The notes under the pieces were generated by a model. That model ran no database searches, was not told the origin of the DNA, and saw only the letters and a list, made by a program, of their open reading frames with translations. A stretch of 64,000 nt of DNA from a virus, in IMG/VR virus record IMGVR_UViG_3300037140_000076, positions 1 through 64,000 of that record. The stretch is one strand, 5' to 3'. The translations under genes and the position numbers were made by a program. Of the stretch, positions 1,551-62,247 are shown one piece after another (position 1 is the first letter of the stretch; each line of letters begins with the position of its first letter).

Positions 1551-2624
1551 ATGCCAGATACTAGCGGAACAAATTATAGTTTTTTAAATGATTATATTTC
1601 TAAAATAATTGGAGACTCTGATAAAGTTGACAACAATGTTTCAGAAGAGGATGATGATCATTTTTATGATGTTCCTGATGAGGATGACACCTCTGATGAG
1701 AATAATGATATTCAGTATAGTATGAATTCTAATGAGGATGACAATTCTGATGAAGGCGCAAGATTAGCTAATGATTATCTTCATGAAACTGGTGATCCGG
1801 ATACTACCGATAGTGACTATGACACTGAAGATGATACTGATCAGGATTCTATTTATGGGCAAGGCGATACGGGAAGTTATTCTGATAGTGCTCCTTCAAA
1901 CCCTGACTATTCATACGTTAGTAGAAATGAAGATCCTGAAAACAGCGATTTAGGCTCTAAGATAGCGTCTAAAGAAAGTCAAGGGAAATATGCAGCGTTT
2001 AATTCAGCCGGTGGTGGGGCAGGGGCTGTTGGTAAATATCAATTTAGATGGAATATTTGGAAAGATTCTATCCAAAAGGTAACCGGGGTAAAAAGTAAAG
2101 ATGAATTTTTAAATAATCCTCAAGCCCAGGAAAAATATTATGGTTGGTATGAAAAGAACTATTTAATACCCGTTGCAAGGAAGCTGCAACCTTATAACAA
2201 GAAAGGATTATCTGAAGACCAGATGGCTGAATTAGTTCATTTTAGAGGTGAAGACGGTGCCAAGAAGTATTTACAAGGAACCGCTCCAGATAAGCCAGAG
2301 AGGTATAATATGTCAACCTCCAAGTACATAGCTACTAAGCAACATGGTGGTGGAGGAGGAATGGGGGGAGGAGGCGGTGGACACGCAGGGGGTGGAGGGG
2401 GAATGGGCGTAGCAATGAGTGCTTCGGCTCAACATACTGGTTTAAATAACTCATCTTTTGATCATATGCTCTTTCCAATGCATGGTGAAAATGAATTTAG
2501 GGGATTGGATGATGGATCAGAAGTATACTTGGAGGATGAGTATGGGAAGAAGAAAAAGCTGAAAGGAAAGCATCATAAAACAACGATGAGAGGTCACGTA
2601 TTTGAAACTCGTTTAAATAGATAA
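1551..2624 (+). CDS. Virion-associated lysozyme-like/transglycosylase (muramidase) cargo protein
   Basis: Acidic N-terminus; IASKESQGKY..FN...GAVGKYQF lysozyme-like motif with catalytic Glu; Gly-rich linker; small C-terminal domain. Confidence 0.65.
   Translation: MPDTSGTNYSFLNDYISKIIGDSDKVDNNVSEEDDDHFYDVPDEDDTSDENNDIQYSMNSNEDDNSDEGARLANDYLHETGDPDTTDSDYDTEDDTDQDSIYGQGDTGSYSDSAPSNPDYSYVSRNEDPENSDLGSKIASKESQGKYAAFNSAGGGAGAVGKYQFRWNIWKDSIQKVTGVKSKDEFLNNPQAQEKYYGWYEKNYLIPVARKLQPYNKKGLSEDQMAELVHFRGEDGAKKYLQGTAPDKPERYNMSTSKYIATKQHGGGGGMGGGGGGHAGGGGGMGVAMSASAQHTGLNNSSFDHMLFPMHGENEFRGLDDGSEVYLEDEYGKKKKLKGKHHKTTMRGHVFETRLNR
2345..2410 (+). repeat. Low-complexity poly-Gly coding stretch (GGGGGMGGGGGGHAGGGGGMG)
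   Basis: GGN codon run within the 1551-2624 ORF. Confidence 0.8.
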
Positions 2625-2626
2625 TT

Positions 2627-4108
2627 ATGGCAAAGAAATGGAAACGTCAAACAGGCGGTAATAAAAGAGATGTACATTTTATAAAAATGAGCATATCTCA
2701 GGCACAACAGGGGGGCTTTGTACCTAAAGAAGATCCTAATAATCCAGGGTTTGATCTGCAAGGTAATCCTATTACCCGTTCTTCTCAAGATTATCCAGAA
2801 TTAGAACAAAATCCAGATGCCAATATAGATGTTACAGGTAATCTTGCAGCACAACAAAGACAACAAAGACAACAGCAGGGGAATGCTCCTAATCAGCCTC
2901 CTAAAAAAATAGCTTTTCTTGATAGCCCTCAAGGTAAGACCCTTAATCAAGGTATTAGAGGAATTACTGATGTGGCTAATTCTATTCAAAATAACAAATT
3001 ACAACATCAGGAAAAACTTCAGTTAAATGAAAGCATGACTCCTAGATTCATGCCTAATCCTAACTCCCAGGGGGCTAATAACGCTCCTGCCTATACGAAG
3101 TATGGTGGGGAAATGAAGATGGGAGGTCCGATTTCACACGGTTCACCAATAGGGGTTGTTGATTCTAATTCAGGCGGTCCTGGACTAGATGAATCAATGT
3201 ACGAAGGTATTAATCATGATAGTTTTTATGGACAGGATATGATTTATAGTGGAGAAATGCCAAGATACCGGGCAGGTGGTACTGTTTCTGCTGATAAAGC
3301 TAAAGAAATCCTTCGTGACGGTACAGCCCAGGGACATCCTTTGACTGATAAACAGAAAAGATATTTTGGATGGATTGCGGGTGGTTCTAAACAAGCAGGT
3401 GGATATTACGCTCAAAACGGAACTCAGGCACCGCCTCCAGCAAATGTCCCAGGAGGACAAGACGTTGTTGATCCTTCTAAACTTACTGATGAATATTATA
3501 TTCAAAATCAACTACTTCAACAGGATAAAGAGATGCTTAATAATAAATTAAAAGCAAAAAATCCTCAAGGATACGCTAAATATTTTTCAGGAATGCAAGC
3601 CTCTGAAAAAGCGGGTCATAGTCGTGAAGATTATGTTCAAGGTTCTGATTACAATGATTATTTATCCCCTGAAGAGGTAAAAAGCGCATTTCCTAATCCT
3701 AATGATTATAATAAATATATTAATAGTTTAAAGTCTGTAAATAGTTTCAATGTACAACAGGGACAAAAACCCCTGTATGGTAATATTGAAGGTGAACAAC
3801 AAGATCCCACTAAGATTAATTATGGAAGAAGGGCTGCAAGTGTTCAAACCTCTCATCAATATGCTCAAAAGATTGGAAATTATAATAGAGATTATAAATA
3901 TAATCCTCAAACACAAGGGGTTGATATTAGCGAAAGCGGTGATCTTTCTAAAAGACCTTCACAGTTTAAACCTATACAGCAACCTCAGCAACAGCAACAA
4001 GTTGCATCAAGACAAACCGGAGGATACTCTGTTGGAGATGAAGTTGAATTAAGTGCTCAGGAAATTAAGGAGTTGAAGAAACAAGGATACAAAATAGAAA
4101 ACATATAA
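2627..4108 (+). CDS. Putative internal virion (cargo/ejection) protein with repeated xxGG motifs
   Basis: Q/N/P-rich and probably disordered; RQTGG, AQQGG, TKYGG, MKMGG, YRAGG, KQAGG, RQTGG; lies in structural operon. Confidence 0.55.
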   Translation: MAKKWKRQTGGNKRDVHFIKMSISQAQQGGFVPKEDPNNPGFDLQGNPITRSSQDYPELEQNPDANIDVTGNLAAQQRQQRQQQGNAPNQPPKKIAFLDSPQGKTLNQGIRGITDVANSIQNNKLQHQEKLQLNESMTPRFMPNPNSQGANNAPAYTKYGGEMKMGGPISHGSPIGVVDSNSGGPGLDESMYEGINHDSFYGQDMIYSGEMPRYRAGGTVSADKAKEILRDGTAQGHPLTDKQKRYFGWIAGGSKQAGGYYAQNGTQAPPPANVPGGQDVVDPSKLTDEYYIQNQLLQQDKEMLNNKLKAKNPQGYAKYFSGMQASEKAGHSREDYVQGSDYNDYLSPEEVKSAFPNPNDYNKYINSLKSVNSFNVQQGQKPLYGNIEGEQQDPTKINYGRRAASVQTSHQYAQKIGNYNRDYKYNPQTQGVDISESGDLSKRPSQFKPIQQPQQQQQVASRQTGGYSVGDEVELSAQEIKELKKQGYKIENI

Positions 4109-4112
4109 CATA

Positions 4113-4517
4113 ATGAAAAAACAAAAAACCATAATAGAAATTGTTCCTTTAAATAAACAACGTTATGAAACTTTGGGGGATTATTTTTATGATAAACAAG
4201 GTGTTAGACATTTTAAAATAACAGATACTGGCAATGAATTCTATAATGATCTAATTCTTGTGCATGAATTAATCGAAGAAATTCTTACAAGAGCAAAAGG
4301 TATAAGCGAGAAGACAATTTTAAGACATGACTTGGAATTTGAGAAACTTTTGAAAGACGGAAAAGTTGGTCCAGATGAAGAACCAGGAGAACATAAAAAT
4401 TCTCCTTATAGACAAGAACATTTATTAGCAGAAATTGTTGAGAAGTTAATGTTGAATCATTTGAATAGAGAAACATTTAAAGAGTATAACAGCAAACTTT
4501 ATAAAATATTTGAATAA
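4113..4517 (+). CDS. Small putative metalloprotein/peptidase (HELIE motif)
   Basis: LILVHELIEE and downstream EPG...PY..EH..AE; stop overlaps the start of the ATP-grasp gene. Confidence 0.45.
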   Translation: MKKQKTIIEIVPLNKQRYETLGDYFYDKQGVRHFKITDTGNEFYNDLILVHELIEEILTRAKGISEKTILRHDLEFEKLLKDGKVGPDEEPGEHKNSPYRQEHLLAEIVEKLMLNHLNRETFKEYNSKLYKIFE

Positions 4518-5806
4518 TGGGAACAGTTGAAATGATACCAGAGGGACTTAAAATTGACTTAAAAGAAAAAGTTGCTTTGGTTTATGACAATGGCTTGTTT
4601 GTGGAAATTGCTAAAACCCTTTCAAAGTCTTTTAAGAAAGTTTATTATTATATGCCCTGGAAGAACGGTTTCCCAAAATCAAATCAATATATAGTTGGTC
4701 AAGGTATTGAAGGGATAGAAAGAATTCATGACTTTTGGGATTATGTTGATAAAGCAGATATTTTTATTTTTCCTGATATTTACGATGGGGATCTTCAATT
4801 GGAGTTAGTAAGACAAGGTAAGAATGTATGGGGTGGTAGAAAGGGAGAAGACATGGAGCTTTATAGAGATCGTATGAAACGTTATATGAAAAGTGTTGGA
4901 CTTTATGTAACTCCCTGGGTTTCTATAAAAGGTCTTACTAATTTAAGAGAATATTTAAAAGACAACCCTGATGTTTGGATAAAACAAAATGTAACGAGAG
5001 GGGATTTTGAAACAGCCCAGTCTAAATCATATGAAGAATTCGAACCTGTTCTTGATGAATGGGAACACATGTTGGGAAAGGTAAAGGAGAATAAAGTATT
5101 TATTGTAGAAAAGAATTTAGAAGCTGTGGAAACAGGTCTTGACTGTTATACAATAGATGGGCAATATCCGAGTCAGACGTTATGTGGTATAGAAGTAAAA
5201 GATTTAGGTTATGTTGGCAAAGTTATGCCGTATGATGAAATCTCTGATAAGATTACGGATTTTAATGATAAAATTATTGGTGCATTTAAAGCTTATAATT
5301 ACAGAGGGTTTTTTAGTACTGAAATAAGAGTTAGCGAAAACAAACCCCCTTATATGGTTGACTTTTGTGCTCGTGCGGGTTCTCCTCCTAGTGAACTTTA
5401 CCAGCTTATGTATAAAAACTTGGCTGAAATTATTTGGTACGGTGCTCAAGGTTTCATGATTGATCCTATTGTTAAACACGTTTATGGTGTTGAGGCTCTT
5501 ATTCATTCTTCCTGGGCAGATAAGAACTGGCAGAAAATTACTTTTCCACCGGAATATAGAAACAATATTAAATTAAGAAATGCTTGCGTTATTGATGGAT
5601 GTTATTATGCGGTTCCGCAGTCTGTGGGCCTTCCTGAGATTGGTGCCGTTGTTGGGGAAGGGGATACTATGGAAGAGGCTATTGAGCAGGTTAAGAAAAT
5701 TGCTCAGACTATTTCTGGTCATTACGTAGAAATAAAAATTGAATCAATAGATAAAGCACTTGAACAGTTTAATGAGTTAAAGAAGTTTGATATTAAAATT
5801 ATATAA
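4517..5806 (+). CDS. Divergent PurD/GARS-like ATP-grasp ligase
   Basis: VWG...MELYRDRMK.YM..VG, VWIK, FIVEK.L, YRGFFSTE, MVDFCARAGSP and GAVVGEGDTMEEA match the order of PurD ATP-grasp motifs; the PurD N-terminal GxGGREHA motif is absent. Confidence 0.72.
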   Translation: MGTVEMIPEGLKIDLKEKVALVYDNGLFVEIAKTLSKSFKKVYYYMPWKNGFPKSNQYIVGQGIEGIERIHDFWDYVDKADIFIFPDIYDGDLQLELVRQGKNVWGGRKGEDMELYRDRMKRYMKSVGLYVTPWVSIKGLTNLREYLKDNPDVWIKQNVTRGDFETAQSKSYEEFEPVLDEWEHMLGKVKENKVFIVEKNLEAVETGLDCYTIDGQYPSQTLCGIEVKDLGYVGKVMPYDEISDKITDFNDKIIGAFKAYNYRGFFSTEIRVSENKPPYMVDFCARAGSPPSELYQLMYKNLAEIIWYGAQGFMIDPIVKHVYGVEALIHSSWADKNWQKITFPPEYRNNIKLRNACVIDGCYYAVPQSVGLPEIGAVVGEGDTMEEAIEQVKKIAQTISGHYVEIKIESIDKALEQFNELKKFDIKII

Positions 5807-15795: not shown

Positions 15796-18700
15796 TGGCA
15801 GTAGCTTGTCCAAATAAGAACATGTCCGAATGGAAGGAATTAGCACAACGCTTTGGTGATAACATTGCAGAAAGTCTTTATTATAGAAATGAAGGAGAGA
15901 TTCCATCTGTTCAAGAGGCCCAGGCAATGCTGCGTGGAAGTAAGGTTGGTCAGTTTAAGGGGCTTGTTAGACATTTGCAAAATACTGTCTCTACTGATCC
16001 TATTGATTTAGTAAGCAATATGTCACGTATTGTTCAGAAGGTCGGATCGGATCTTTATGTCGTTAAGGGAAGCAAACTGAGCGAGAAGCCTACTGTTGGT
16101 GCTGAAATGGAAATTCATACACCAAACATTAAGTTCTTAAAATCAATTAATGAATCCGTTGGTCCATTGTTTAATCTTATAAAGGTTAACGAAAGTAGTA
16201 GCTCTGCCTCTTTGGGGAATGATGTTATTACTGATTTAAGAAATGGAGAATTTGACTCCCTTCAGGGGCTTACTTATAAAAATGATGCAACTGACGATCT
16301 TAAAAGAGATCAAATATTAAAAGATCTTTCTGAACAGGCTTTAAACAGTGATGAGGAAAGAAGAGGACTCGAATCTTCTATTGGTAAACCTATTGTTGAT
16401 AAAATTATCAAATATAATGAATCTTTAAAACCTGCTGAAGAAAAGACTGACGCTAAAAAAGTAGAGGATGCTATAAAAGCGAGTCCTGTTGTATTCAATA
16501 ATTTAACTGAGGACGATAAAGGGAATTATGTATTCTTTCATTATTCTAATGCTGATTTAACTAAATCAGGTATTGACCCAGAGAAGTTTGGAAAGAACAC
16601 TAATGTAACCGGAAGAGAAGAAGCTTCAAGAAGCATTCCTGCAAGCCTGTATTATACAGACTCTAAAGTAGCAGAGCCTGGGCTTGGTACATATAAGCAT
16701 GTAGTAAGGGTGCCAAAAAGCGAAGTGTATCCTTTTAACTCTGATCCATTGAATCTATATACTGAAGCTGAAAAGCGTTTTAAAGAACAGTATCCGGATA
16801 GACCATTTAACCCTAATGAACAAATTGGTTGGATAGGTAAAGTGGCTGCTGAGAAGGGATATAAAATGATTGTTGCGGAATGGGGAGGGTTAAAGAAGAA
16901 AGCATTAAGAGCAGAAAGTATCAATACATTAAAACCGGAGCTTATTGAAAAACCTTTAGGGGGTACATATGGTGCCAACGCTATAGAACCAATAGGTAAT
17001 GAAAAGTTTATTACAAATAGAAAAAGATATAAATCTGAAATAACAGATAAAAGCGCAACAACTGACGCAACCGTTTTAAACGATTATGCCCCTGGAACAT
17101 ATAAGGTTGAAATCAATCAGGATGTTCTGAATAATATTGCATCAAAGAACGCTGATCTTAAAAATAAAGATAACGTATCTGATCAGAAAGAGGCATTGGC
17201 TACTAATAATGATATTTTAAATAACAAGGCCCCTAAATACAGTAAAGCGTACGGGGATGCACAAGTTACTTCCGTAAATTATAATCTTATAAATAATTTG
17301 CAGAAGAAGTTCAATATTCCTTATGAAATAATAAATGACAATACTTCAGATTACAGAGGTAAGTTTGAAAATGGAAAAGTAACTATTAATGCAGCAAAGT
17401 TAAATGAATATACTGCTTTGCATGAATATCTTCATCCGTTTACAGCAGCAATGCAAAAAGATAACCCCGATCTCTATAATAACCTTATTCAGGACTTACA
17501 AAGCACAGAAGCTGGTAAGAAAGTAATTGAAGAAATAAAAACCAAATATCCAGAACTCGGTGCAAAAGATCAGTTAGACGAAGCTCTTGTAAGTCATCTT
17601 AGTCAAATTACTCAACAGGATCAAATAAAATCTAAACCTTGGTATAACCAATTAATGGATTGGTTTAGAGATTTATTTGGTAGAAATAACGTAAGTATAT
17701 CGGGCCTGGACATGAACATGACCCTGGACGATATTTCTAATAAAATTATTGATCCTACTTATAGTGCGGATTTAAAGCATTACGCTGCCTCTAATGATAT
17801 GGCTGCAAAGTATCAAAAAGATAATGATACACCAGAACATTCTGAGAACTTTAATCAGATTCTTGATAAGATTAAAAATAAGCTGGCTCTTGATGTAAAC
17901 GTTCCTGCAACTAGTAAAGAACAGGAAACTCGTAAATATTTCTCTGGTCGTCAGTTGGCAGATCTCCAGGCGAATAAAAATGTTTATAGGGCTGTTAATG
18001 ATTACGTAACAAGTGCTATTATAAACGCAAAGAAGATCAATGAAAGTTTTGATCAATTCAAAAACTTTTATGAAGAGAAAGGTGGAAAGCTTTCTAAGGA
18101 TGAAATGTTAAAAGGAATGAATATTCTTTCTGATATGGAACAGCATATCGCTCTTTATAATGAAAGTGGTTTTATTATAGACGCTATCAAAAAAGAAAAT
18201 GCTGAGGAATATGACGATAATTTCAGATTATTAAAAAATCGTTTGGATGGGGATACTTCAATTATTAATAATTATCATGAGTATGGTTTAAAACTTATGA
18301 GTGATTGGTTATATCCAACAATGAGAAAGACTATTGATGCTACTATCAAATCTGGTAACATTGAAAAGATGCCTGGGTATGCTGAATACCTGGCTGTAAA
18401 AGCAAAAAGCCCGAACATAGAAGAAGGTGATGCTATTGAACAAGGAGTAAAGACCTGGTTGAAAGGGCAGATGGAACATGCTACAAGTGATATTGGATTT
18501 TTCAATTCATATATGACCGGAGTTTTAAATTCTAAGGACCCTATTAGTCAACTTACTGCTCTTTCTTTAAAAGAAGAGTTTGCAAAAAACAATGCAAGAT
18601 TATTTAAAGTTAAAACCTCAATACAAAATGCAATTACGAAAGTTACTGGTAAAAAGATTTTTACAACTAATGAACAGCATAAAGAACTCTATAAGGGATT

Positions 18701-33742: not shown

Positions 33743-34771
33743 TTATTTCATTAAATGTTCAAAAAGTTGTTTTCTATATTCATTGATTTTAAGTAAATTA
33801 TAATGTTCACGACAATATTCACCCAGGGCCTGTCCTTTCTCCTTAAGAAAGACCGGATCAATAGCGAACTTTTTAATATTGTCAAACCAGGTTGCAGCAT
33901 TCGATCCATACATAACTAAATCCCTATTAGGGAAGTCAGAGTAAGGAGAAGTATCTGAAGCAATACAGGGATTGTACTTAGCCGCACTCTCCAGGATCTT
34001 TAAATTGGACTTGTATGCATTAAACATATTCTGTTCCAAAGGTATCAAGGTAACGTCACAATGAGAATAATGATCCTCATAGGAGTCTAGGGGGAGGGTT
34101 CCCCTAGATTCATAACCGGGTATCCTTCCGTTTAAAGAGAAAGAGTTCTCCATCTTGTTCCAGAATACAAGGGACTCTTTGTTTCTGTAGTCCACTCCGG
34201 CAAGGATGAACTTAGATTTATTAAATTTGGGATTGTTTATAATCTTTTCAAATGGTCTTTTTAAAACTTGAATATCGTGAAAATGTGATGATCCTCCTGC
34301 ATAAAGAAAACGGGTGAATTCACTTTCTACCTTTGTAGAGTTAAATTGTTCATGATCGTAGGGGAGGGCATTAGGAATTACATGGACATTCTTGTTTAAA
34401 GCCTTTACTTTATCAGCCAGTAGAGCGGTTGTAACAATAACGGCATCTGACGCAACAATGCAATCTTTTATCTTTTGGGCGGTTTTATTAGCTTCCCAGG
34501 ACTTAGCCAGGATGTGATGAGGGTATAGATCCCAATAATCATCAAGATCCGTAACTATTTTAAAACCGTGTTGTTTTTGCAAGGGTTTAAATACTTCAAT
34601 ATCCATCCCTGGGGTCCTGTTAAACAAAAGGATTTTTGTCTCTGGAGAAAGATCCCCAAAAGTTTTACCTTTCCATTGATTAATATCAATGCCCATATAC
34701 TTCAAAGGCATGACCAATCGGTGCCAATCGCATCCTGACGACATCTTAATTATTGCAGTTAATCCTTTCAT
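33743..34771 (-). CDS. Glycosyltransferase (GT-B fold, GT4-like)
   Basis: SGCDWHRL..P, TDLDDYW, VTT..LA, VIPNALP, YAGG.SH..D, DV.LIPL....FN..KSNLKILE...P.IASD..PY; start set at ATG 34771. Confidence 0.85.
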   Translation of the reverse strand: MKGLTAIIKMSSGCDWHRLVMPLKYMGIDINQWKGKTFGDLSPETKILLFNRTPGMDIEVFKPLQKQHGFKIVTDLDDYWDLYPHHILAKSWEANKTAQKIKDCIVASDAVIVTTALLADKVKALNKNVHVIPNALPYDHEQFNSTKVESEFTRFLYAGGSSHFHDIQVLKRPFEKIINNPKFNKSKFILAGVDYRNKESLVFWNKMENSFSLNGRIPGYESRGTLPLDSYEDHYSHCDVTLIPLEQNMFNAYKSNLKILESAAKYNPCIASDTSPYSDFPNRDLVMYGSNAATWFDNIKKFAIDPVFLKEKGQALGEYCREHYNLLKINEYRKQLFEHLMK

Positions 34772-35429
34772 TGTTTGTCTTTTTGTATTTCCAAATAAAC
34801 CCACCAGTTTGTTTTCTTTTTCCTTGAGCAACCATTGTTATTTTTCCATTTGAAATATTTAACTCTTTGGTTGCATTAGAAATACAACTCCATTCTTTTA
34901 TAAAAATTCCTTGTTTATCATATTGTAATACTGTTTTTGCACGTAATCCCTTACGAGATTTACTCATTTGTTGAAGAGATTTTTTTGAAAAACAGTTTTT
35001 TAATCCTTTATTCCAAGTAATATGTCCTGTCCGTTCGCTGCTGGATTTTCCTATTTTTTTCTTAGATTCTTTTGTATGTTTGGGTTTTCCTAAATGAGCT
35101 TTTGCTATTTTATCTTTTGATTCTTGAGTATGTTTTGCCCCATACCCACCCTCTCTCAAATTCAACAACTCAATACCACAATCACGATAAAGATCCATAT
35201 AAAACTGTTCATACCGATCTAAAACATCTTGACTTACATCAGAGGGTAATTCGTGACAAATTTCAAACTTATGATTTTTAACTCCATATTTATCAAAGGA
35301 ATTTTCTAGTTTTGCTTGTTTGTGTTTTCTACCATGTTGTTTATAATGAGTCCATCTGCTTTTAATATCCCAACTCTGCCCAATATATACTTTCCCAGAA
35401 GGACTTGTTATTTTATAAATTCCAATCAT
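34746..35429 (-). CDS. GIY-YIG homing endonuclease
   Basis: GIYKITSPSGKVYIGQS; NUMOD3 repeats (HT.ESK.KI); NUMOD1 C-terminus. Confidence 0.9.
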   Translation of the reverse strand: MIGIYKITSPSGKVYIGQSWDIKSRWTHYKQHGRKHKQAKLENSFDKYGVKNHKFEICHELPSDVSQDVLDRYEQFYMDLYRDCGIELLNLREGGYGAKHTQESKDKIAKAHLGKPKHTKESKKKIGKSSSERTGHITWNKGLKNCFSKKSLQQMSKSRKGLRAKTVLQYDKQGIFIKEWSCISNATKELNISNGKITMVAQGKRKQTGGFIWKYKKTNNERINCNN

Positions 35430-37735: not shown

Positions 37736-38421
37736 TAGTTTGTATTTTCATTGTGATGATCAACTCCACCCAGGGGAATTCTCTTTTTCATTATTTCGGC
37801 AATCTCATCAAAGTGATATGGACGGAATTTTGGATGAGCATCTACACCAATATCCATGCATTTGAATTTACAGTCTTCTGGTAGACCCGCCATTTCCCAA
37901 TAAAATTCTTCATTTTCATCACGAGAAAATCTATGGTAATCAGATAGTGTTCCATGACTATGGCCGTATAAATTCCAGTTACCATGATGACCCTTACCCC
38001 ACACCCTCTGAGAGAAATGAGACAAACACATTGATTGACCACCAATTTTCTTATTCATGATATATTGGTTCACTGAAGCAAAAAGACTTTGAATATTAAG
38101 TAATTCAGGCATCTTTATTTGAACTAGTTTATTATTTGCAATATGATGATCATGATTGCCCAGGACCAAATGAATTGTTTTGCAATTAATTTGTTTACGG
38201 AAATTCCAGATCTGATCAATCCCGCCAAAACTCCAATCCCCAAGGTGATAAAGAATATCATTTTCCTTTACAGTCTTATTGATATTTTCAACCAGGCGAA
38301 CGTCATGTTCTTCCAGAGTATCAAGATCCCTACACCTAGATAGATCTGTCCATTCAGAAGTTCCACGCACAATGTTTTTGTGGTGGAAGTGTGTATCACT
38401 TGTAAAAAAAGTACTTGTCAT
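37735..38421 (-). CDS. Calcineurin-like metallophosphoesterase
   Basis: TSDTHF.H, HLGD, LGNHD, LSHF, LYGHSHG, DIGVD. Confidence 0.9.
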   Translation of the reverse strand: MTSTFFTSDTHFHHKNIVRGTSEWTDLSRCRDLDTLEEHDVRLVENINKTVKENDILYHLGDWSFGGIDQIWNFRKQINCKTIHLVLGNHDHHIANNKLVQIKMPELLNIQSLFASVNQYIMNKKIGGQSMCLSHFSQRVWGKGHHGNWNLYGHSHGTLSDYHRFSRDENEEFYWEMAGLPEDCKFKCMDIGVDAHPKFRPYHFDEIAEIMKKRIPLGGVDHHNENTN

Positions 38422-38860
38422 AATTACGTTGATTTATTTTATCAAATCTTTTTTTCATGTCTTTAATAATTCCATGCGGAACGTGTCTGCCGGTTAGTAT
38501 CCTTCTCTTAACCTCCCTTACTCTACAAAGCCATAAAGGAGTATTGAAAAATATTATTTTAAGTATAAAATCAGCTTCAGGAAACTGTTTTACGTATCCA
38601 TCCAGGTGGGCAGCATCAACATTTGTTTTATCAATAATAATATTATGTTTAAGATGTATTGATGCTCCTAATAAATGATCCCAACATTTAGTGACTTTTT
38701 TCTCGTCATTGCTATTCTGTTTATACTCTTTACCAAACATCTTCTCCCTTATTTCATCTCTTGAAAGTATAGTAAAGAATCGTTTATCAGGGAACCTTTT
38801 AATAAAGGTTGTTTTACCACTACCTGGAGGTCCACATAAAATTAAAACTACTTTTTTCAT
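38396..38860 (-). CDS. Polynucleotide kinase-like P-loop kinase (AAA_33)
   Basis: ILCGPPGSGKTT, LSRDEIR, IIDKTN, C..R...R....R.VP. Confidence 0.85.
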   Translation of the reverse strand: MKKVVLILCGPPGSGKTTFIKRFPDKRFFTILSRDEIREKMFGKEYKQNSNDEKKVTKCWDHLLGASIHLKHNIIIDKTNVDAAHLDGYVKQFPEADFILKIIFFNTPLWLCRVREVKRRILTGRHVPHGIIKDMKKRFDKINQRNYDKYFFYK

Positions 38861-38958
38861 AATGTTATTTTTCAGATAATATATACATAATAGTACAAAA
38901 TATTATACTTAAATTTATAACCCAACTAACAATAACATATGTTTTATAACTCATAAAA

Positions 38959-40341
38959 TTAATTTTGTGTTTCTACATCAATTACTTCTGCATCTGCCTG
39001 TTTAGATTCGTGGATCAAAAAAAGTGGCGACTTAAGCTTGTATACTCTGGGATTTGGATAATCCTCAATCCGAATAACAATACCCTCTTCTATCACGTTA
39101 GAATCAAGCCAGGATGGTCTGTCAAGATAAGTCTTAATAAAATATTTTTCAAATTTATCTTTCCAAGGTTCTGGATCTCCAAGGAAATCTTCTATTGCAC
39201 AGCCTACTTGATGCACTGCAAAATTTGATACTTTTCCTTCATAATCTGTAATTACAGGATCAACTCCAATCTCCGTACATCTTTTACGGACCTGTCTCCA
39301 TGATAAATCCACTTCAACCCCCTGGGAGTTTATATGAGTGATTCTGTATACATAAACTTTAGGAATATTTAATCCATAAGAATATCCTTTTTGAATATCT
39401 ACTCCAGCGGCTAGAGGTATATATGTATTACCTGTACACCTGATTTGATATTTATCTTTTCCGATAATTTCAAAATATACAATCTCTCCTTTATGTAATT
39501 TATTTTGGAAGTTAACTTTTCCAACCATTGTCCAAAGATCATCTTCGTAAAAATGATTCTTATTCTTCAGTTCATTAAAGTTTACAGATTTTACAACGTG
39601 ACGGCTTCCTATCACATAACTATATTCTTCATCCACAACTTTCACTCCCAGTTTTTTAGCAAGTTTTTCATGCCATTTGAGTTTGCGTTTAGTAAGTGTA
39701 TGACCTATACGGGCAGAAGTACCGTGAAGTTTAATAGTGATGCTCATTTCATCCAGAAGATTGATTTTATCCAGGTTCTTAAGTAACTGAGAAGTATCAA
39801 TATGTTCAGGGAACATACGGGAATCAATGATCTCATCCAATACCTTATTTGATTTCATTGTACCAGGTCCAGAAGATTTGACAGGAACAATATATTTTTT
39901 ACAAATAAAAATTCCGTCAATTTCATTAAACTCCTGTCCAGCTTTAAGACCATATACTATTTTATTAACACCTCCTGAAGCACCTGGAATAACATTTGCT
40001 AGAGAACCAATAGGCATTACAACTCCTGTAGATTTATTGCCTTTAAATTTTATTGCTTTGACTCTTCCATTATCCTCAAAATATCCTTTTGATTTCTGAT
40101 CTTCATTTAGATTAGAATTCCGATAAAGATTATTACCCTTAAGGTAAGCTTCACTAAGTTGAGTTTCTGACGGAAAGAATATATAAAGATCCCCCAGAGG
40201 ATACTTCTTTGGAATTATACACGTATTACCAAACACCGAAGTCCCAACTACATTATCTAAGCCAGGGAGGGAGAATGTAGTTGTTACCTTAACTACTGTA
40301 CCAGTGTAGTTTTTTGAGTCTTCATAAATTTTTAGTGACAT
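38959..40341 (-). CDS. ATP-dependent RNA ligase (Rnl2/DRB0094-like, with N-terminal OB-like domain)
   Basis: ITIKLHGTS (motif I Lys), GSR, YFEIIG, YVYRI, EEGIVIR, YKLKS. Confidence 0.85.
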   Translation of the reverse strand: MSLKIYEDSKNYTGTVVKVTTTFSLPGLDNVVGTSVFGNTCIIPKKYPLGDLYIFFPSETQLSEAYLKGNNLYRNSNLNEDQKSKGYFEDNGRVKAIKFKGNKSTGVVMPIGSLANVIPGASGGVNKIVYGLKAGQEFNEIDGIFICKKYIVPVKSSGPGTMKSNKVLDEIIDSRMFPEHIDTSQLLKNLDKINLLDEMSITIKLHGTSARIGHTLTKRKLKWHEKLAKKLGVKVVDEEYSYVIGSRHVVKSVNFNELKNKNHFYEDDLWTMVGKVNFQNKLHKGEIVYFEIIGKDKYQIRCTGNTYIPLAAGVDIQKGYSYGLNIPKVYVYRITHINSQGVEVDLSWRQVRKRCTEIGVDPVITDYEGKVSNFAVHQVGCAIEDFLGDPEPWKDKFEKYFIKTYLDRPSWLDSNVIEEGIVIRIEDYPNPRVYKLKSPLFLIHESKQADAEVIDVETQN

Positions 40342-45262: not shown

Positions 45263-45760
45263 TTAATATTTCCAAATAAAACCCCCTGCTGTGTTTCTTT
45301 TTCCTTTTGCACAATAACTAATATTAACACCGTGTATTTTTGTTTTTTTGGCCGCTTCTGTTATTGATTTATATATTTTTATTAATTTTCCTGAGATACT
45401 GTATTGTTTTATTTTTATAGGTGGACCATATTGTATTTTAAGGACATTCATTGCATGTTTTTTATTTTCTGAATCAGTTACCCATTCCAAATTCCAATCA
45501 TTATTATTCAATTTATTTCCATCTTTATGATTAACGTAAGGTTTATTTTCTGGGTTTGGGATAAAAGTCAAAGCAACTAAACGATTAATTCTTTTATTAT
45601 ATGATTTATTATTTTTCCATAATAAAGTATTATAATAACCTCCTGTTTTTAGTTCAAATGCTTTTAATTTATTTCTTTTTATAGATTTAACTTGTCCAGT
45701 AGTACTAACTTTATATAATCCTTCATATCCTTCTATATCTTTCCAAACCTCTAAATTCAT
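45263..45760 (-). CDS. NUMOD4-HNH homing endonuclease
   Basis: EVWKDIEGYEGLYKVS, RLVA..F, VNHKDGNKLNN...NLEW.T..EN..HA. Confidence 0.9.
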   Translation of the reverse strand: MNLEVWKDIEGYEGLYKVSTTGQVKSIKRNKLKAFELKTGGYYNTLLWKNNKSYNKRINRLVALTFIPNPENKPYVNHKDGNKLNNNDWNLEWVTDSENKKHAMNVLKIQYGPPIKIKQYSISGKLIKIYKSITEAAKKTKIHGVNISYCAKGKRNTAGGFIWKY

Positions 45761-59082: not shown

Positions 59083-59313
59083 TTAAAAAGATAGGACCTC
59101 AGACTCAATACGAGCCTCATGACGGACCTTTGGAGGGCGGGAAGGGATTATATCCACTTTGGAGTAGATAGGCTCGTCCTTGGCAGATTTATAGCCAAAG
59201 AAGAACACCATACAGGTAAAGATACCCAGGCCAAGGAGGATGAAGGGGACAAGGGGGAAGGATAGAACTATCCAAACCCCGGTAATTGCGTTGTTGAGTT
59301 TTTTATTTCTCAT
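59083..59313 (-). CDS. Small membrane protein
   Basis: Long hydrophobic N-terminal segment. Confidence 0.5.
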   Translation of the reverse strand: MRNKKLNNAITGVWIVLSFPLVPFILLGLGIFTCMVFFFGYKSAKDEPIYSKVDIIPSRPPKVRHEARIESEVLSF

Positions 59314-59737
59314 ATTGTTTTTTTAGTTTTAAAGTATATTCTTTGATTTTTGGAACCAGGTCCAAATTGTTCTCGGCCTTTGTATGCGTTTCCCAAGATA
59401 CTAATATGATGTTCCACTTCTCATATCTAAATTGTGGGTATGCTGATTTTCGTTTGCCCAGGACATGATGGAAGTATAACGTTAACGGCTCCCCGTATAT
59501 CGGTTCTCCTGTCTCAAAGTCTATGTGTGGTCGTTCATTCCAAATCTCAGCAAATAAAAGTCTATCCTTCTGAGTTAGCTTCGCTCTCTCTCCCAAGATT
59601 ACGCTTTGGTTTTTGCTTACTTTCCGGATAGATTTAGTTCTGTTTAGAGAATACCCTGTTTTACGTTGATGATAAATACAATATCCTTTTGAAAATACAG
59701 GATTATTACATTCTTTATATTGACAGGTCTTAGGCAT
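59303..59737 (-). CDS. HNH-like/NinG-like nuclease with N-terminal Zn finger
   Basis: C...C....GYC..H; FHHVL.K...YP.FR....NI......H. Confidence 0.55.
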   Translation of the reverse strand: MPKTCQYKECNNPVFSKGYCIYHQRKTGYSLNRTKSIRKVSKNQSVILGERAKLTQKDRLLFAEIWNERPHIDFETGEPIYGEPLTLYFHHVLGKRKSAYPQFRYEKWNIILVSWETHTKAENNLDLVPKIKEYTLKLKKQYEK

Positions 59738-59740
59738 TCG

Positions 59741-60271
59741 TTATGCTGCTTTTTTTACTGGATATTCAGAATCGTTTTCTAACAGTTTATCCTTAGCAAA
59801 ATCAAATGTATAACCTGTTTTATCCTTAGCGGTATAATAAGCATATCCTTTCAACTTCTGATCTACTGGAATGTTATAGGTGTCCTTAAGGAGATTACGA
59901 AGCACTCTTTTTATGTTAAGGTTTTCGATTGGAGTCTCAGTTGTTAATTCTAGCTCCTCTACGTGACTTCCTTTTCCAAGATTAATGGTGATCGTATAAA
60001 TAAGTTTCAATTTGCTTCTTTTCTTAACGTGGAACTTTCCTTTGATCTTTTTATAGTCAAGATATTTGTAGAACATGTCTCCCAGGTGGAATGAAGGTTT
60101 CCTTATCTTCTTTGAAGCTATAGGGGTAGCAGGTGCCACAGCGGGTAATTCCGTTTCTTCTAAAGTAAATTCATGATCTACTTTCATATCAAGATCAGTT
60201 TTTACTTTTAACTTTTCCATCAATTCTTTTACTTCATCCTCTGTACTAATGTTCTGTTTTGTTCTTGACAT
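59741..60271 (-). CDS. Hypothetical protein
   Basis: ATG at 60271 preferred over track TTG. Confidence 0.6.
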   Translation of the reverse strand: MSRTKQNISTEDEVKELMEKLKVKTDLDMKVDHEFTLEETELPAVAPATPIASKKIRKPSFHLGDMFYKYLDYKKIKGKFHVKKRSKLKLIYTITINLGKGSHVEELELTTETPIENLNIKRVLRNLLKDTYNIPVDQKLKGYAYYTAKDKTGYTFDFAKDKLLENDSEYPVKKAA

Positions 60272-60290
60272 ATTGATAGTTTTTAATTTC

Positions 60291-60322
60291 AAAAAAAAGG
60301 CCCAATATAGAAATACCGGGCC
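60291..60322 (-). terminator. Intrinsic terminator downstream of the tmRNA
   Basis: GGCCCGGTAT-TTCT-ATATTGGGCC followed by T8 on -. Confidence 0.8.
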
Positions 60323-60347
60323 AATACTTATTTCTAAGGTTTGTCAG

Positions 60348-60705
60348 TGGACTAGTCGGAATTCGAATCCGAGTCTTCAATACAAAAAATCTTACTTTTC
60401 TTTATAGGTTTAGGATAACGATTTAATCTTACTACCGTTCCAAAAGAATTTTCCTACCCTCCACCACTCGGTTTAGGTCCGAGAACCATGCTACACCAGC
60501 CATTTTCTGTTTCAAGGTATGACTACCCATGCATCAAGCTAATTCCAGTTCTTCACTGAAAACCGAAGCGAGTATCGCTTCTCCTTCTGCAATACGTTCA
60601 GCTTTAGACTTTACGTTTGTTTGTTGCATATTTATTAAGGATGTTATATACTGCATCCACCTAAAATAAAACCTTTCAATACTGAATCAATAGCCTTTCT
60701 AGCCC
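60348..60705 (-). ncRNA. ssrA: tmRNA (transfer-messenger RNA), 358 nt
   Basis: 5' GGGCUAG pairs with 3' CUAGUCC-A with the G3:U70 Ala determinant; T-arm UCGGA-UUCGAAU-UCCGA preceded by GAC; helix 2 UUCAGUA/UAUUGAA; internal tag ORF ending ...EELELA*; CCA not encoded. Confidence 0.9.
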
Positions 60706-60710
60706 ATAAA

Positions 60711-60902
60711 TTAAAATAGTAGAGAGTCAAAGAGGTACGGATACGTGAAGACTATATTTCCCAATCTTTATAGTTATTTCCCGTTGCAACAGTAATAACA
60801 CCTCCAGTTTGTCGGAAGCTTTTTTGATTGGTACATCTCGGACACCGTTTCGACCACGCCCATGATCAGTGGGTTTGTGCGGTTCTTCATCTACTATTTT
60901 AA
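60711..60902 (-). ncRNA. Unidentified ~190-nt structured RNA candidate
   Basis: 13-bp terminal inverted repeat closing several internal stems; no ORF; between the tRNA-like element and the tmRNA. Confidence 0.6.
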
Positions 60903-60910
60903 AAAAGTTA

Positions 60911-61052
60911 AAAAATAAGTCCCTTTCCCTTCACTATCCCAGGGTGGTTAATAAGGACTTATTTTTACGTACGCTGTTTTAGGCTACAGATACCTCATAC
61001 GTAACCATTGCCGTTAGAATATAGACCGATTTATGATACTATACAACGGTTG
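60911..61052 (-). other. Run of three adjacent stem-loops
   Basis: AAAAATAAGTCC/GGACTTATTTTT (60911-60966); TACGTA..CTGT/ACAG..TACGTA; CCGTTG.TATAG/CTATA..TAACGG. Confidence 0.5.
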
Positions 61053-61061
61053 GATTTTTCG

Positions 61062-61130
61062 AACATCCAAGAGGAATCGAACCCCTGCTTCACCCTACAC
61101 GGGTGCGTCCTCCCACTAGACCATAGATGT
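61062..61130 (-). tRNA. tRNA-like element with an aberrant 5-nt anticodon loop (GUGUA); identity undetermined
   Basis: Acceptor ACAUCUA/UGGAUGU; D-arm GUCU-AGUGGGA-GGAC; stem CACCC/GGGUG; T-arm AGGGG-UUCGAUU-CCUCU; no CCA. Confidence 0.75.
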
Positions 61131-61155
61131 TGCCATAAACACGTTATTCGGAACA

Positions 61156-61187
61156 CAAAGATAAGTAACTTTTTTGAAACTTACAAA
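61156..61187 (-). promoter_or_regulatory. Bacteroidetes sigma70-type promoter of the ncRNA cluster
   Basis: TTTG-N20-TATCTTTG, matching consensus, about 25 nt upstream of the tRNA-like element. Confidence 0.8.
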
Positions 61188-61720
61188 TATTTAAATTTAT
61201 ATCCAAATGCGTGTTTTTCAAGACCATTTAAAACATGCCAAATAGTTGATTGTCTTATTTTTAATTGTCTTGAAGCTTCCCTTTGAGAAATAAATTTTAT
61301 TTTTTTGTTTTTAGGAGATATAACTAAAATCTTAGTTGGTTTATTTCCCATGACTTTTTTCAATATATCCCTTGCATGTTGTATATTTTGTTGCCTTGTA
61401 CACCATTCAAGCTGAGAGGCCCGGTTATCAAGTTTATTTCCTTTCTTATGATTTATATCAAATCCTTTTTTATATCCTTTTACAAAATGTTTTCCAACTA
61501 ATATATGAACCTGGATTTTAGTAGATTTTCCATTTTTGGTTAAATCTAATTGTAAGTATCCTTTAGCATTTGGAGAAAGAATTCTATTTCTTCCCTTAAA
61601 TTTTTGTAAAATTCCATGTTTGGTTTTTATTATTCTATCAAGAGATTTAATATTACCATAATTACTTATTTGATAATAACCTTTGTATCCTTTTATATCT
61701 TTCCATTCTTTTTTCCTCAT
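61181..61720 (-). CDS. NUMOD4-HNH homing endonuclease
   Basis: EWKDIKGYKGYYQISN.G, VH.LV..HF, INHK.GNKLDN....LEW.T...N..HA. Confidence 0.9.
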   Translation of the reverse strand: MRKKEWKDIKGYKGYYQISNYGNIKSLDRIIKTKHGILQKFKGRNRILSPNAKGYLQLDLTKNGKSTKIQVHILVGKHFVKGYKKGFDINHKKGNKLDNRASQLEWCTRQQNIQHARDILKKVMGNKPTKILVISPKNKKIKFISQREASRQLKIRQSTIWHVLNGLEKHAFGYKFKYL

Positions 61721-62247
61721 AGTTCAGATAATATTATTTTTTGCTCATCAAGATGAAATTTACCAAAGTGTTGTTTTACACATGCTTGATAAATTATTTC
61801 TGATTTAAGAACTTTAGTATACATAATCCAATCTGCACTTGTTCCTGTTAAATAATCTTTACTTAATCCAATCTGTTCATAATAAGCTTTGACTTCATCT
61901 TCTACAGTAAATTCAAACTTATAACGAGCATGAATATAATCATGGATTGCGCGAAACATTAGATTATAAACTGGACCCCAAAGTTCACTATCATTTCCTG
62001 ATACATTAACCTTAATTCTTCCTTTATTAAAGTCAGGAAGAACTTCCTGAATTGATTCATAGTTATAAGGATCATCCTTAGTAAAGTCAAAATGAACAGT
62101 ATGACTTAATGAATCAAACATTTTACAAATCAAAGTTCTGAATTGAATTCTTTGAAATTCACTTATAATATTAATTTCATTATCAGCAGTTACGTATCCT
62201 TCTGCAATTCTTTTAATTGCGTTAGGTCTTAAGAAATAATTATCCAT
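61717..62247 (-). CDS. Hypothetical protein with FRAIHDYIH (HDxxH) metal-binding motif
   Basis: N.MFRAIHDYIH...F....E..A. Confidence 0.55.
   Translation of the reverse strand: MDNYFLRPNAIKRIAEGYVTADNEINIISEFQRIQFRTLICKMFDSLSHTVHFDFTKDDPYNYESIQEVLPDFNKGRIKVNVSGNDSELWGPVYNLMFRAIHDYIHARYKFEFTVEDEVKAYYEQIGLSKDYLTGTSADWIMYTKVLKSEIIYQACVKQHFGKFHLDEQKIILSEL

Follow-up and report, generated by a model that had tools for sequence, protein, structure and literature searches.

Phage-encoded transfer-messenger RNAs (tmRNAs) have been found in 2.3% of 18,146 phage genomes (PMC9004378), and huge phages also carry them (PMC7162821). In the marine myophage Melnitz, a glutamine riboswitch is attached to the tmRNA as a further structured RNA (PMC9004378). 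Here we describe a locus of conserved non-coding RNAs in a phage of about 112 kb that has not been cultured and uses Bacteroidota-type promoters. The locus occupies positions 60291-61187 of the stretch of DNA analysed (hereafter the window), which comprises 64,000 nucleotides (nt) and is the first 64 kb of the 112,374-bp IMG/VR virus record IMGVR_UViG_3300037140_000076. At its centre lies a working-looking one-piece tmRNA with a long tag under selection as a peptide, accompanied by two conserved, structured adjacent RNAs that are unmatched in the databases, one of them joined to the 5' end of the tmRNA. Phage tmRNAs as such are already known; what is new is an RNA of about 190 nt placed just upstream of the tmRNA and a transfer RNA (tRNA)-like element, both found in two independent lineages only.

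Like the ssrA genes of mycobacteriophage cluster C, Melnitz and the huge phages, the present gene encodes a complete tmRNA in a lytic-type genome that has many tRNA genes and no phage SmpB. It differs from them in that the tmRNA is in one piece and has an unusually long tag of 26-28 amino acids (aa) ending in …ELELA, …ELEVA or …LELV, and not in …ALAA. Moreover, in contrast to the riboswitch of the Melnitz type, the conserved RNA of 190-215 nt that precedes the tmRNA belongs to none of the known families. The tRNA cluster of phage T4 contains the small stable RNAs species 1 and 2 (rnaC/rnaD), the homing endonuclease gene segB and decoding tRNAs, but no tmRNA. The present locus is similar to it as a promoter-driven, polycistronic set of tRNA-shaped and other stable RNAs of unassigned function, with maturation by host RNase P and homing endonuclease genes nearby, although the unit and its processing are predictions here; unlike in T4, the real tRNAs lie elsewhere in the genome and on the other strand, and the unit would consist of a non-decoding mimic and a tmRNA. 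In MALAT1 mascRNA, the tRNA-miRNA (TMER) transcripts of gammaherpesvirus 68 and bacterial tRNA 3'-trailer small RNAs such as 3'ETS-leuZ, RNase P or RNase Z is attracted by the shape of a tRNA and thereby frees the neighbouring RNAs. These resemble the predicted transcript in that a module shaped like a tRNA, but with an anticodon arm out of the ordinary, heads the RNA and is followed by hairpins; they are, however, eukaryotic or host-chromosomal systems, and the element here has a fixed GUNNA loop.

If the two RNAs control or cooperate with ribosome rescue, they would offer a tangible way into the question of how the translation quality control of a host is retuned by a phage. If they are merely processing scaffolds, the locus would represent a case from a bacterial virus of tRNA-shaped modules cutting a polycistronic RNA. 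In practice, study of the locus is limited by the lack of a cultured phage and by the very thin sampling of its family.

Results and discussion

A conserved RNA locus on the minus strand

A preliminary description of the window had proposed a stretch of about 850 nt without a credible protein gene, bounded by a consensus Bacteroidetes promoter and a strong terminator and holding, in order, a tRNA-like element, three hairpins (H1-H3), a multi-stem RNA of about 190 nt and a tmRNA. This arrangement was recovered: each element was found at or near the place predicted, all of them on the minus strand (Table 1), and the promoter pattern and the terminator were confirmed at their exact positions. The longest open reading frame (ORF) in 60291-61187 encodes 46 aa under code 11, and none was convincing under TAG=Q or code 4. 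Rfam and ARAGORN both detected the tRNA-like element and the tmRNA. With regard to Rfam, it should be underlined that both matches appeared only when a 1.5-kb region was scanned alone, while cmscan on the full 64 kb at gathering thresholds returned zero matches; its speed filters mask both elements within AT-rich phage DNA.

The locus was compared with those of two relatives, the close IMGVR_UViG_3300050124_000042 (L002/L004; polymerase 97% identical, local DNA 79-99% identical) and the more distant Ga0137431_1000281 (L109; polymerase 58% identical). In the window, L004 and L109 it lies between the same flanking genes, with homologues of the protein encoded at 61717-62247 on one side and of the 59303-59737 and DUF932 proteins on the other. 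The preliminary description had regarded synteny in related phages as a check, and accumulation of the tmRNA alone with an unconserved remainder as a sign that it was wrong. As far as conservation is concerned, more than the tmRNA is kept, as the tRNA-like element, its trailer, H1 and the 190-nt RNA all recur in L109 with compensatory changes. The only strictly conserved adjacency in the locus is that of the 190-nt RNA and the tmRNA.

Table 1. Positions and properties of the elements of the RNA locus and of the protein genes discussed with it
Feature	Position in the window	Strand	Properties
One-piece tmRNA	60345-60705	-	Rfam RF00023, 48.9 bits (cut-off 47), E 6.5e-18, model 1-374; also ARAGORN
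Tag reading frame	60534-60614	-	26 codons and stop; resume codon GUA; end …ELELA; ARAGORN predicts a 26-aa tag
190-nt multi-stem RNA (approximate length)	60713-60900	-	Three-way junction; z -2.6
tRNA-like element	61062-61130	-	Full cloverleaf; Rfam tRNA, 44.6 bits; called Thr(tgt) by ARAGORN
Conserved 3' trailer	61048-61061	-	…AAUCCAACC; core identical in window, L002 and L109
H1	61005-61053	-	Outer CCA/UGG and 4-bp stem, inner bulged stem; z -2.85
H2	60967-61002	-	7-bp stem around small H-type pseudoknot (AGGU with the loop of the inner 4-bp stem)
H3	60910-60966	-	11-14-bp stem, structured tip, then U6; terminator-like; -16.7 kcal/mol; z -2.0
Bacteroidota-type promoter	61156-61187	-	-33 TTTG (61184-61187), 20-nt spacer, -7 TATCTTTG (61156-61163); regex scan
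Intrinsic terminator	60291-60322	-	10-bp stem (5 G-C), 4-nt loop, U8; z -3.8
HNH/NUMOD homing endonuclease gene	61181-61720	-	Just upstream of promoter; Pfam NUMOD4, HNH_3, I-HmuI-like; PHROG HNH endonuclease
RNA ligase (PF09414) and AAA_33 P-loop kinase genes, adjoining	38396-40341		About 20 kb from the RNA locus

The tmRNA and its tag

The tmRNA comprises a 7-bp acceptor stem with G3:U70, the alanine identity pair, a T-arm, a long helix 2, a putative pseudoknot PK1, the tag ORF and a further pseudoknot region. Its orthologues are found at L002:1997-2393 (41.3 bits, E 1.2e-14) and L109:4714-5178 (84.3 bits). G3:U70 is kept in all three copies, and compensated pairs were counted at three of seven positions in the acceptor stem and at all five in the T stem. 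Inspection by eye allows stems for PK1 to be drawn in the window and L002, 11-12 nt before a codon that starts with G; the resume codons of the three copies, GUA in the window and GCA and GAC in the others, each stand 11-12 nt past the proposed PK1. Four more distant relatives (L011, L024, L053 and L123) also have a tmRNA, located upstream of the polymerase gene. A profile search with RF00023 missed the tmRNA of the window and ARAGORN missed those of L002 and L109, so a failure to find a tmRNA in other relatives is weak evidence. The genome of the phage has no SmpB gene. As judged by its sequence and predicted fold, the centre of the locus is a one-piece tmRNA that appears to be functional.

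The tags of the window and L109 are equal in length and position, with eight codons identical, 13 synonymous and six replaced conservatively, and the base differences are distributed over the three codon positions as 6, 3 and 15, i.e. 15 out of 24 at the third position. Since synonymous codon differences thus outnumber replacements and most differences are at third positions, the tag is considered to be under purifying selection as a peptide. The tag of L002 is different (28 codons with a similar acidic-hydrophobic end), even though L002 is the closer relative overall. That L002 differs while the distant L109 shares the tag of the window indicates that the central domain of the tmRNA has been exchanged between lineages. 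Comparing positions 60380-60660 of the window with L002:2045-2290, we found both the central domain (the tag and the later pseudoknots) and the T-stem to be wholly different, in phages whose polymerases are 97% identical. A tag starting at an AUG was also considered and was rejected, as the frame of L002 contains a stop 12 nt ahead of the resume codon and the shared AUG falls where the 3' strand of PK1 is drawn.

The 190-nt RNA

The 190-nt RNA is closed by a 13-bp stem, P1 (60890-60900 with 60713-60725), and includes a hairpin, P2. A conserved 5' core (60832-60882) pairs with a 3' core (60726-60760) to give a long irregular helix with a variable tip. The orthologue in L109, at about 4495-4710, ends 3 nt upstream of the L109 tmRNA; in every copy the distance to the tmRNA is 3-7 nt, and the RNA is present once in the genome. 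The two long cores are near-identical between the window and L109, while the sequence of P1 is wholly different and yet paired in both. RNAalifold predicted a consensus structure of 43 pairs, all 43 of which are formed in both of the copies from which the structure was derived, with ten compensatory changes; when the partners were slid by 1-3 columns as a control, 27-45% were paired and at most three compensatory changes were seen. Substitutions between the window and L109 in the core helix hit bulges and internal loops, never pairs. The L109 copy folds at z -6.9 relative to shuffled sequences.

The 190-nt RNA and the hairpins matched no Rfam family at E<=10 within 60000-61500, apart from noise (fragments of MIR390, ohsC and Spot 42). 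A covariance model built from the two copies, used together with nhmmer, retrieved no further copy from 2.3 Mb of relatives' loci or from the whole genome, and the viral, metagenome and genome collections yielded none when scanned with exact and degenerate patterns. A small protein gene was rejected as an explanation: the 38-aa ORF at 60774-60890 stops after nine codons in L109, and the conserved core is in another frame. As this ORF is not conserved, the element is taken to be an RNA and not a gene. In both copies an AUG follows directly after the 5' strand of P1 (window 60890-60860; L109:4505-4535), with the same frame …R-T-N-(P/L)-L…. A short leader peptide may start there, of 38 codons in the window and nine in L109, the remaining frame being unconserved. 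A hammerhead ribozyme was rejected as well, because the CUGA-like motif sits in the loop of a variable hairpin and has been lost from the L109 copy.

With regard to known RNAs, the element is similar to the Y RNA/YrlA group in that its two ends pair to form a long, irregular helix whose bulges are conserved and whose tip varies. The motif GGUCGA on the 5' strand and the motif UUGAC on the 3' strand are reminiscent of the Ro-binding helix, a resemblance that we take as a lead only. Membership in this group was rejected on account of the lack of an Rfam match in the search above and of a TROVE/Ro protein in the genome, and because the bulge is on the opposite strand. On the covariation and the conserved cores, we regard the 190-nt element as a well-supported but thinly sampled new structured RNA.

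Two of the distant relatives, with polymerases about 36% identical (L053:8905-9048 and L123:~1490-1637), have a 16-17-bp inverted repeat with compensatory differences that encloses 150-190 AT-rich bases directly upstream of the tmRNA. This repeat is reminiscent of P1 in the 190-nt RNA, although the sequence it encloses is unrelated and includes a box similar to a promoter.

The tRNA-like element

The orthologues of the tRNA-like element (L002:1572-1645 and L109:2372-2440) score 38.7 and 32.5 bits, respectively, with Rfam RF00005, for which the cut-off is 29. Compensatory changes affect five of the seven acceptor pairs and three of the five T-stem pairs, and the anticodon stem is also compensated. 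While the stems of the element diverge, its 5' leader and 3' trailer are conserved, and so is H1; between the close relatives, the tRNA body has been replaced and the frame of the loop retained.

The loop of the anticodon arm reads C-G-U-G-U-A-G and thus has G33 in place of the near-universal U33. C32 and G38 can pair, which leaves a loop of 5 nt. The corresponding loops are CGUGUAG in L002 and CGUUCAG in L109, giving the common frame C-G-U-N-N-A-G in all three copies, with UGU (window and L002) or UUC (L109) at the place of the anticodon. Measured against a canonical decoding tRNA, the element has an adequate cloverleaf score but neither a 7-nt loop with U33 nor a conserved anticodon. A normal tRNA-Thr(UGU) is encoded elsewhere in the genome (83837-83909). 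Because the 'anticodon' varies within a fixed, C-G-closed loop with G33, the element is best described as a conserved tRNA mimic and not as an ordinary decoder. The fixed GUNNA loop suggests that it is recognised by a specific ligand, rather than by its shape alone.

Three otherwise normal tRNAs without U33 were observed in the same phage, at genome positions beyond the window, namely Pro(UGG) with C33 (83756-83832), Gln(UUG) with C33 (84150-84221) and Arg(ACG) with A33 (84339-84411). In the relative G005, the Pro(UGG) and Glu(UUC) tRNAs have C33 (L107:9416-9492 and 15944-16017). An altered position 33 is a recurrent trait of this phage family, possibly linked to the evasion of anticodon nucleases (cf. 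PMC10264068).

Transcription signals and hairpins

The putative promoter fits the Bacteroidota sigma-A form, with -33 TTTG and -7 TAnnTTTG about 19-21 nt apart. This two-box pattern is found at only 17 sites on both strands of the 112-kb genome (224 kb of strand), four others of which stand before the tRNA arrays of the phage, and the -7 box in Table 1 is the sole such motif on the minus strand within 60000-61400. A TTTG…TAnnTTTG promoter lies ahead of the locus in all three phages (at 1516 in L002 and 1877 in L109). In L109 there is no plus-strand terminator-like site from the promoter to the end of the tmRNA. In the window none of 200 shuffled sequences folded as well as the terminator, and L002 keeps this terminator behind an inserted HNH gene. 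Since both gene order and promoter are conserved, co-transcription of the locus from one promoter is plausible.

Of the three hairpins, H1 has two compensatory pairs relative to L109 and a single one-sided change relative to L002. If its pseudoknot is ignored and H2 is treated as a simple hairpin, the fold reaches only z -0.9. In the comparison of the window with L002, two of the four pairs of its inner stem are changed on both sides, and the outer stem and the 4-bp pseudoknot stem show one-sided changes only. H3 is near-identical in L002 and hence uninformative on covariation. It was missed by the simple terminator scan owing to a loop longer than 8 nt, and it could terminate or attenuate transcription.

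Proposed processing and function, and the alternatives

The following scheme for transcription, processing and function is a reading of the elements, of their conservation and covariation and of the selection on the tag. We favour, with modest confidence, a single processed unit built around a functional tmRNA and including a non-decoding tRNA-like module and the new 190-nt RNA. The most economical arrangement is a single unit bounded by the one promoter that could be recognised and the one terminator of canonical form. The promoter would drive the whole 0.87-kb unit through to this terminator. Host RNase P would then cut at the 5' end of each tRNA-shaped module, one being the tRNA-like element and the other the corresponding domain of the tmRNA. 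The pieces would be split by 3'-end enzymes, possibly together with RNase III, for which the long stem P1 of the 190-nt RNA is a potential site. The predicted products are the tmRNA and two or three further structured RNAs. The tmRNA would be alanylated by the host alanyl-tRNA synthetase, which would recognise G3:U70, and would use host SmpB, the phage having none; it would rescue ribosomes that stall during infection and add a phage-specific tag of 26 aa. The tRNA-like element may serve as a structural module, in processing or as a mimic that binds a protein. The 190-nt RNA may act as a folded leader on the 5' side through which maturation of the tmRNA is controlled, or may be set free in the same amount as the tmRNA.

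A bolder suggestion, which we put forward tentatively and hold to be rather unlikely, is that the 190-nt RNA on the 5' end of the tmRNA represents a new class of phage RNA working with trans-translation, as a gate on maturation, a ligand of a host factor in the rescue pathway or a regulator released one for one, and that the tRNA-like element with its GUNNA loop is a mimic aimed at a tRNA-binding protein of the host.

Several observations weigh against a single processed unit of this kind. The 190-nt RNA occurs in only two independent lineages (window/L002 and L109), and its pairs were counted in the same two sequences that defined them. The tmRNA of the window scores barely above the Rfam cut-off and that of L002 below it. 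Since three ordinary tRNAs of the phage also lack U33, G33 alone is no proof that the tRNA-like element does not decode. H2 and H3 are without clear counterparts in L109. H3 resembles an intrinsic terminator placed between the tRNA-like part and the 190-nt RNA/tmRNA, which makes two transcripts possible, and in L109 these two parts are split by three ORFs (1.3 kb). As ORFs separate the two halves in L109, the locus is not an obligate all-RNA operon, and its parts need not act together.

The main rival explanation builds on the last of these points and divides the locus into two units. A short RNA, consisting of the tRNA-like element and H1-H2, would end at H3, in the manner of the small RNAs that bacteria derive from tRNA 3' trailers, while the 190-nt RNA and the tmRNA would be made from a promoter that the scan did not recognise or by regulated read-through of H3. 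The stem of H3 and the U6 that follows it are as expected for such an end, but its tip of 28 nt is large for an efficient intrinsic terminator and H3 is not evident in L109. The 1.3 kb with ORFs between the halves in L109 and the strict adjacency of the 190-nt RNA and the tmRNA also agree with two units; on the other hand, there is no TAnnTTTG motif from which a second unit could start, neither on the minus strand between 61156 and 60000 nor in L109 between 1901 and 6000. We consider this arrangement unlikely, though it is the most serious of the competing explanations. A view that concedes less to the locus is that the tmRNA alone is functional, the tRNA-like element being a decayed tRNA gene and the rest a spacer shaped by recombination and homing-endonuclease traffic. 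The differing homing endonuclease genes that flank the locus in the relatives, the swapping of the tRNA body and the tmRNA centre between close relatives and the restriction of H2 and H3 to the close relative are all consistent with such traffic. A decaying tRNA gene would, however, not be expected to keep every stem through compensatory changes in five of seven acceptor and three of five T-stem pairs, nor would a spacer be expected to preserve all 43 pairs and long identical cores of the 190-nt RNA at 58% polymerase identity, or the trailer and H1 as far as L109. This explanation is the one to which we give least credence.

The preliminary description had proposed that one precursor is processed into several RNAs that protect or redirect translation and that, with the RNA-repair genes, these may form an anti-defence system against immunity that cleaves tRNA or mRNA. 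In such a system the tRNA-like element, and perhaps the 190-nt RNA, would act as a decoy or inhibitor of immunity that cleaves tRNA or mRNA, the tmRNA would clear ribosomes from cleaved mRNAs, and the RNA ligase and kinase would take part as well. The genes invoked do exist, and they stand side by side as in an RNA-repair pair; they are nevertheless 20 kb away and unlinked to the locus in any relative examined, and the functional connection is thus unsupported. The C-G-U-N-N-A-G loop, kept while the tRNA body was swapped between close relatives, is what would be expected if the loop is recognised, and the several tRNAs with altered position 33 in this phage family fit in with this, given that phage tRNAs are reported to act against anticodon nucleases as well as against the effectors of retrons (PMC10264068, PMC11555353). 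Nothing in the sequence, however, distinguishes a decoy from a processing module, and many phages carry tmRNAs for which no such link has been shown. We found no specific support for an anti-defence role and regard it as improbable.

Genome setting and mobile genes

The virus record is estimated to be 93% complete and has a G+C content of 35%. It encodes a family-A-like DNA polymerase, a topoisomerase, RecA and several homing endonuclease genes. Its ordinary tRNA genes number 19 and are found on the plus strand in the 75-88 kb region of the genome. A polymerase search gave no cultured phage with a polymerase more than 35% identical to that of this phage, whereas the protein database contains a graded series of polymerase relatives on contigs of about 100-130 kb, including a group with 59-72% identity. 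By blastn, none of 50,697 INPHARED phage records showed DNA similarity to the locus. The proteins flanking the locus had one relative at most, or none.

The HNH/NUMOD gene just upstream of the promoter (Table 1) is absent from the equivalent place in L004, while L002 has a different HNH gene (L002:2400-2985) between the tmRNA and the terminator. Further endonuclease genes of the window are located at 59303-59737 (weak HNH PHROG), 45263-45760 (HNH/NUMOD) and 34746-35429 (GIY-YIG). In L109, the promoter is followed by about 1 kb without credible ORFs, which holds a tRNA with an anticodon stem extended to 9 bp, the orthologue of the tRNA-like element, a Gln-like third tRNA and much predicted structure (2242-2325 and 2441-3215). 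Downstream of the L109 tmRNA lies a region of about 150 nt (L109:5179-5330) that is closed by a stem and U5.

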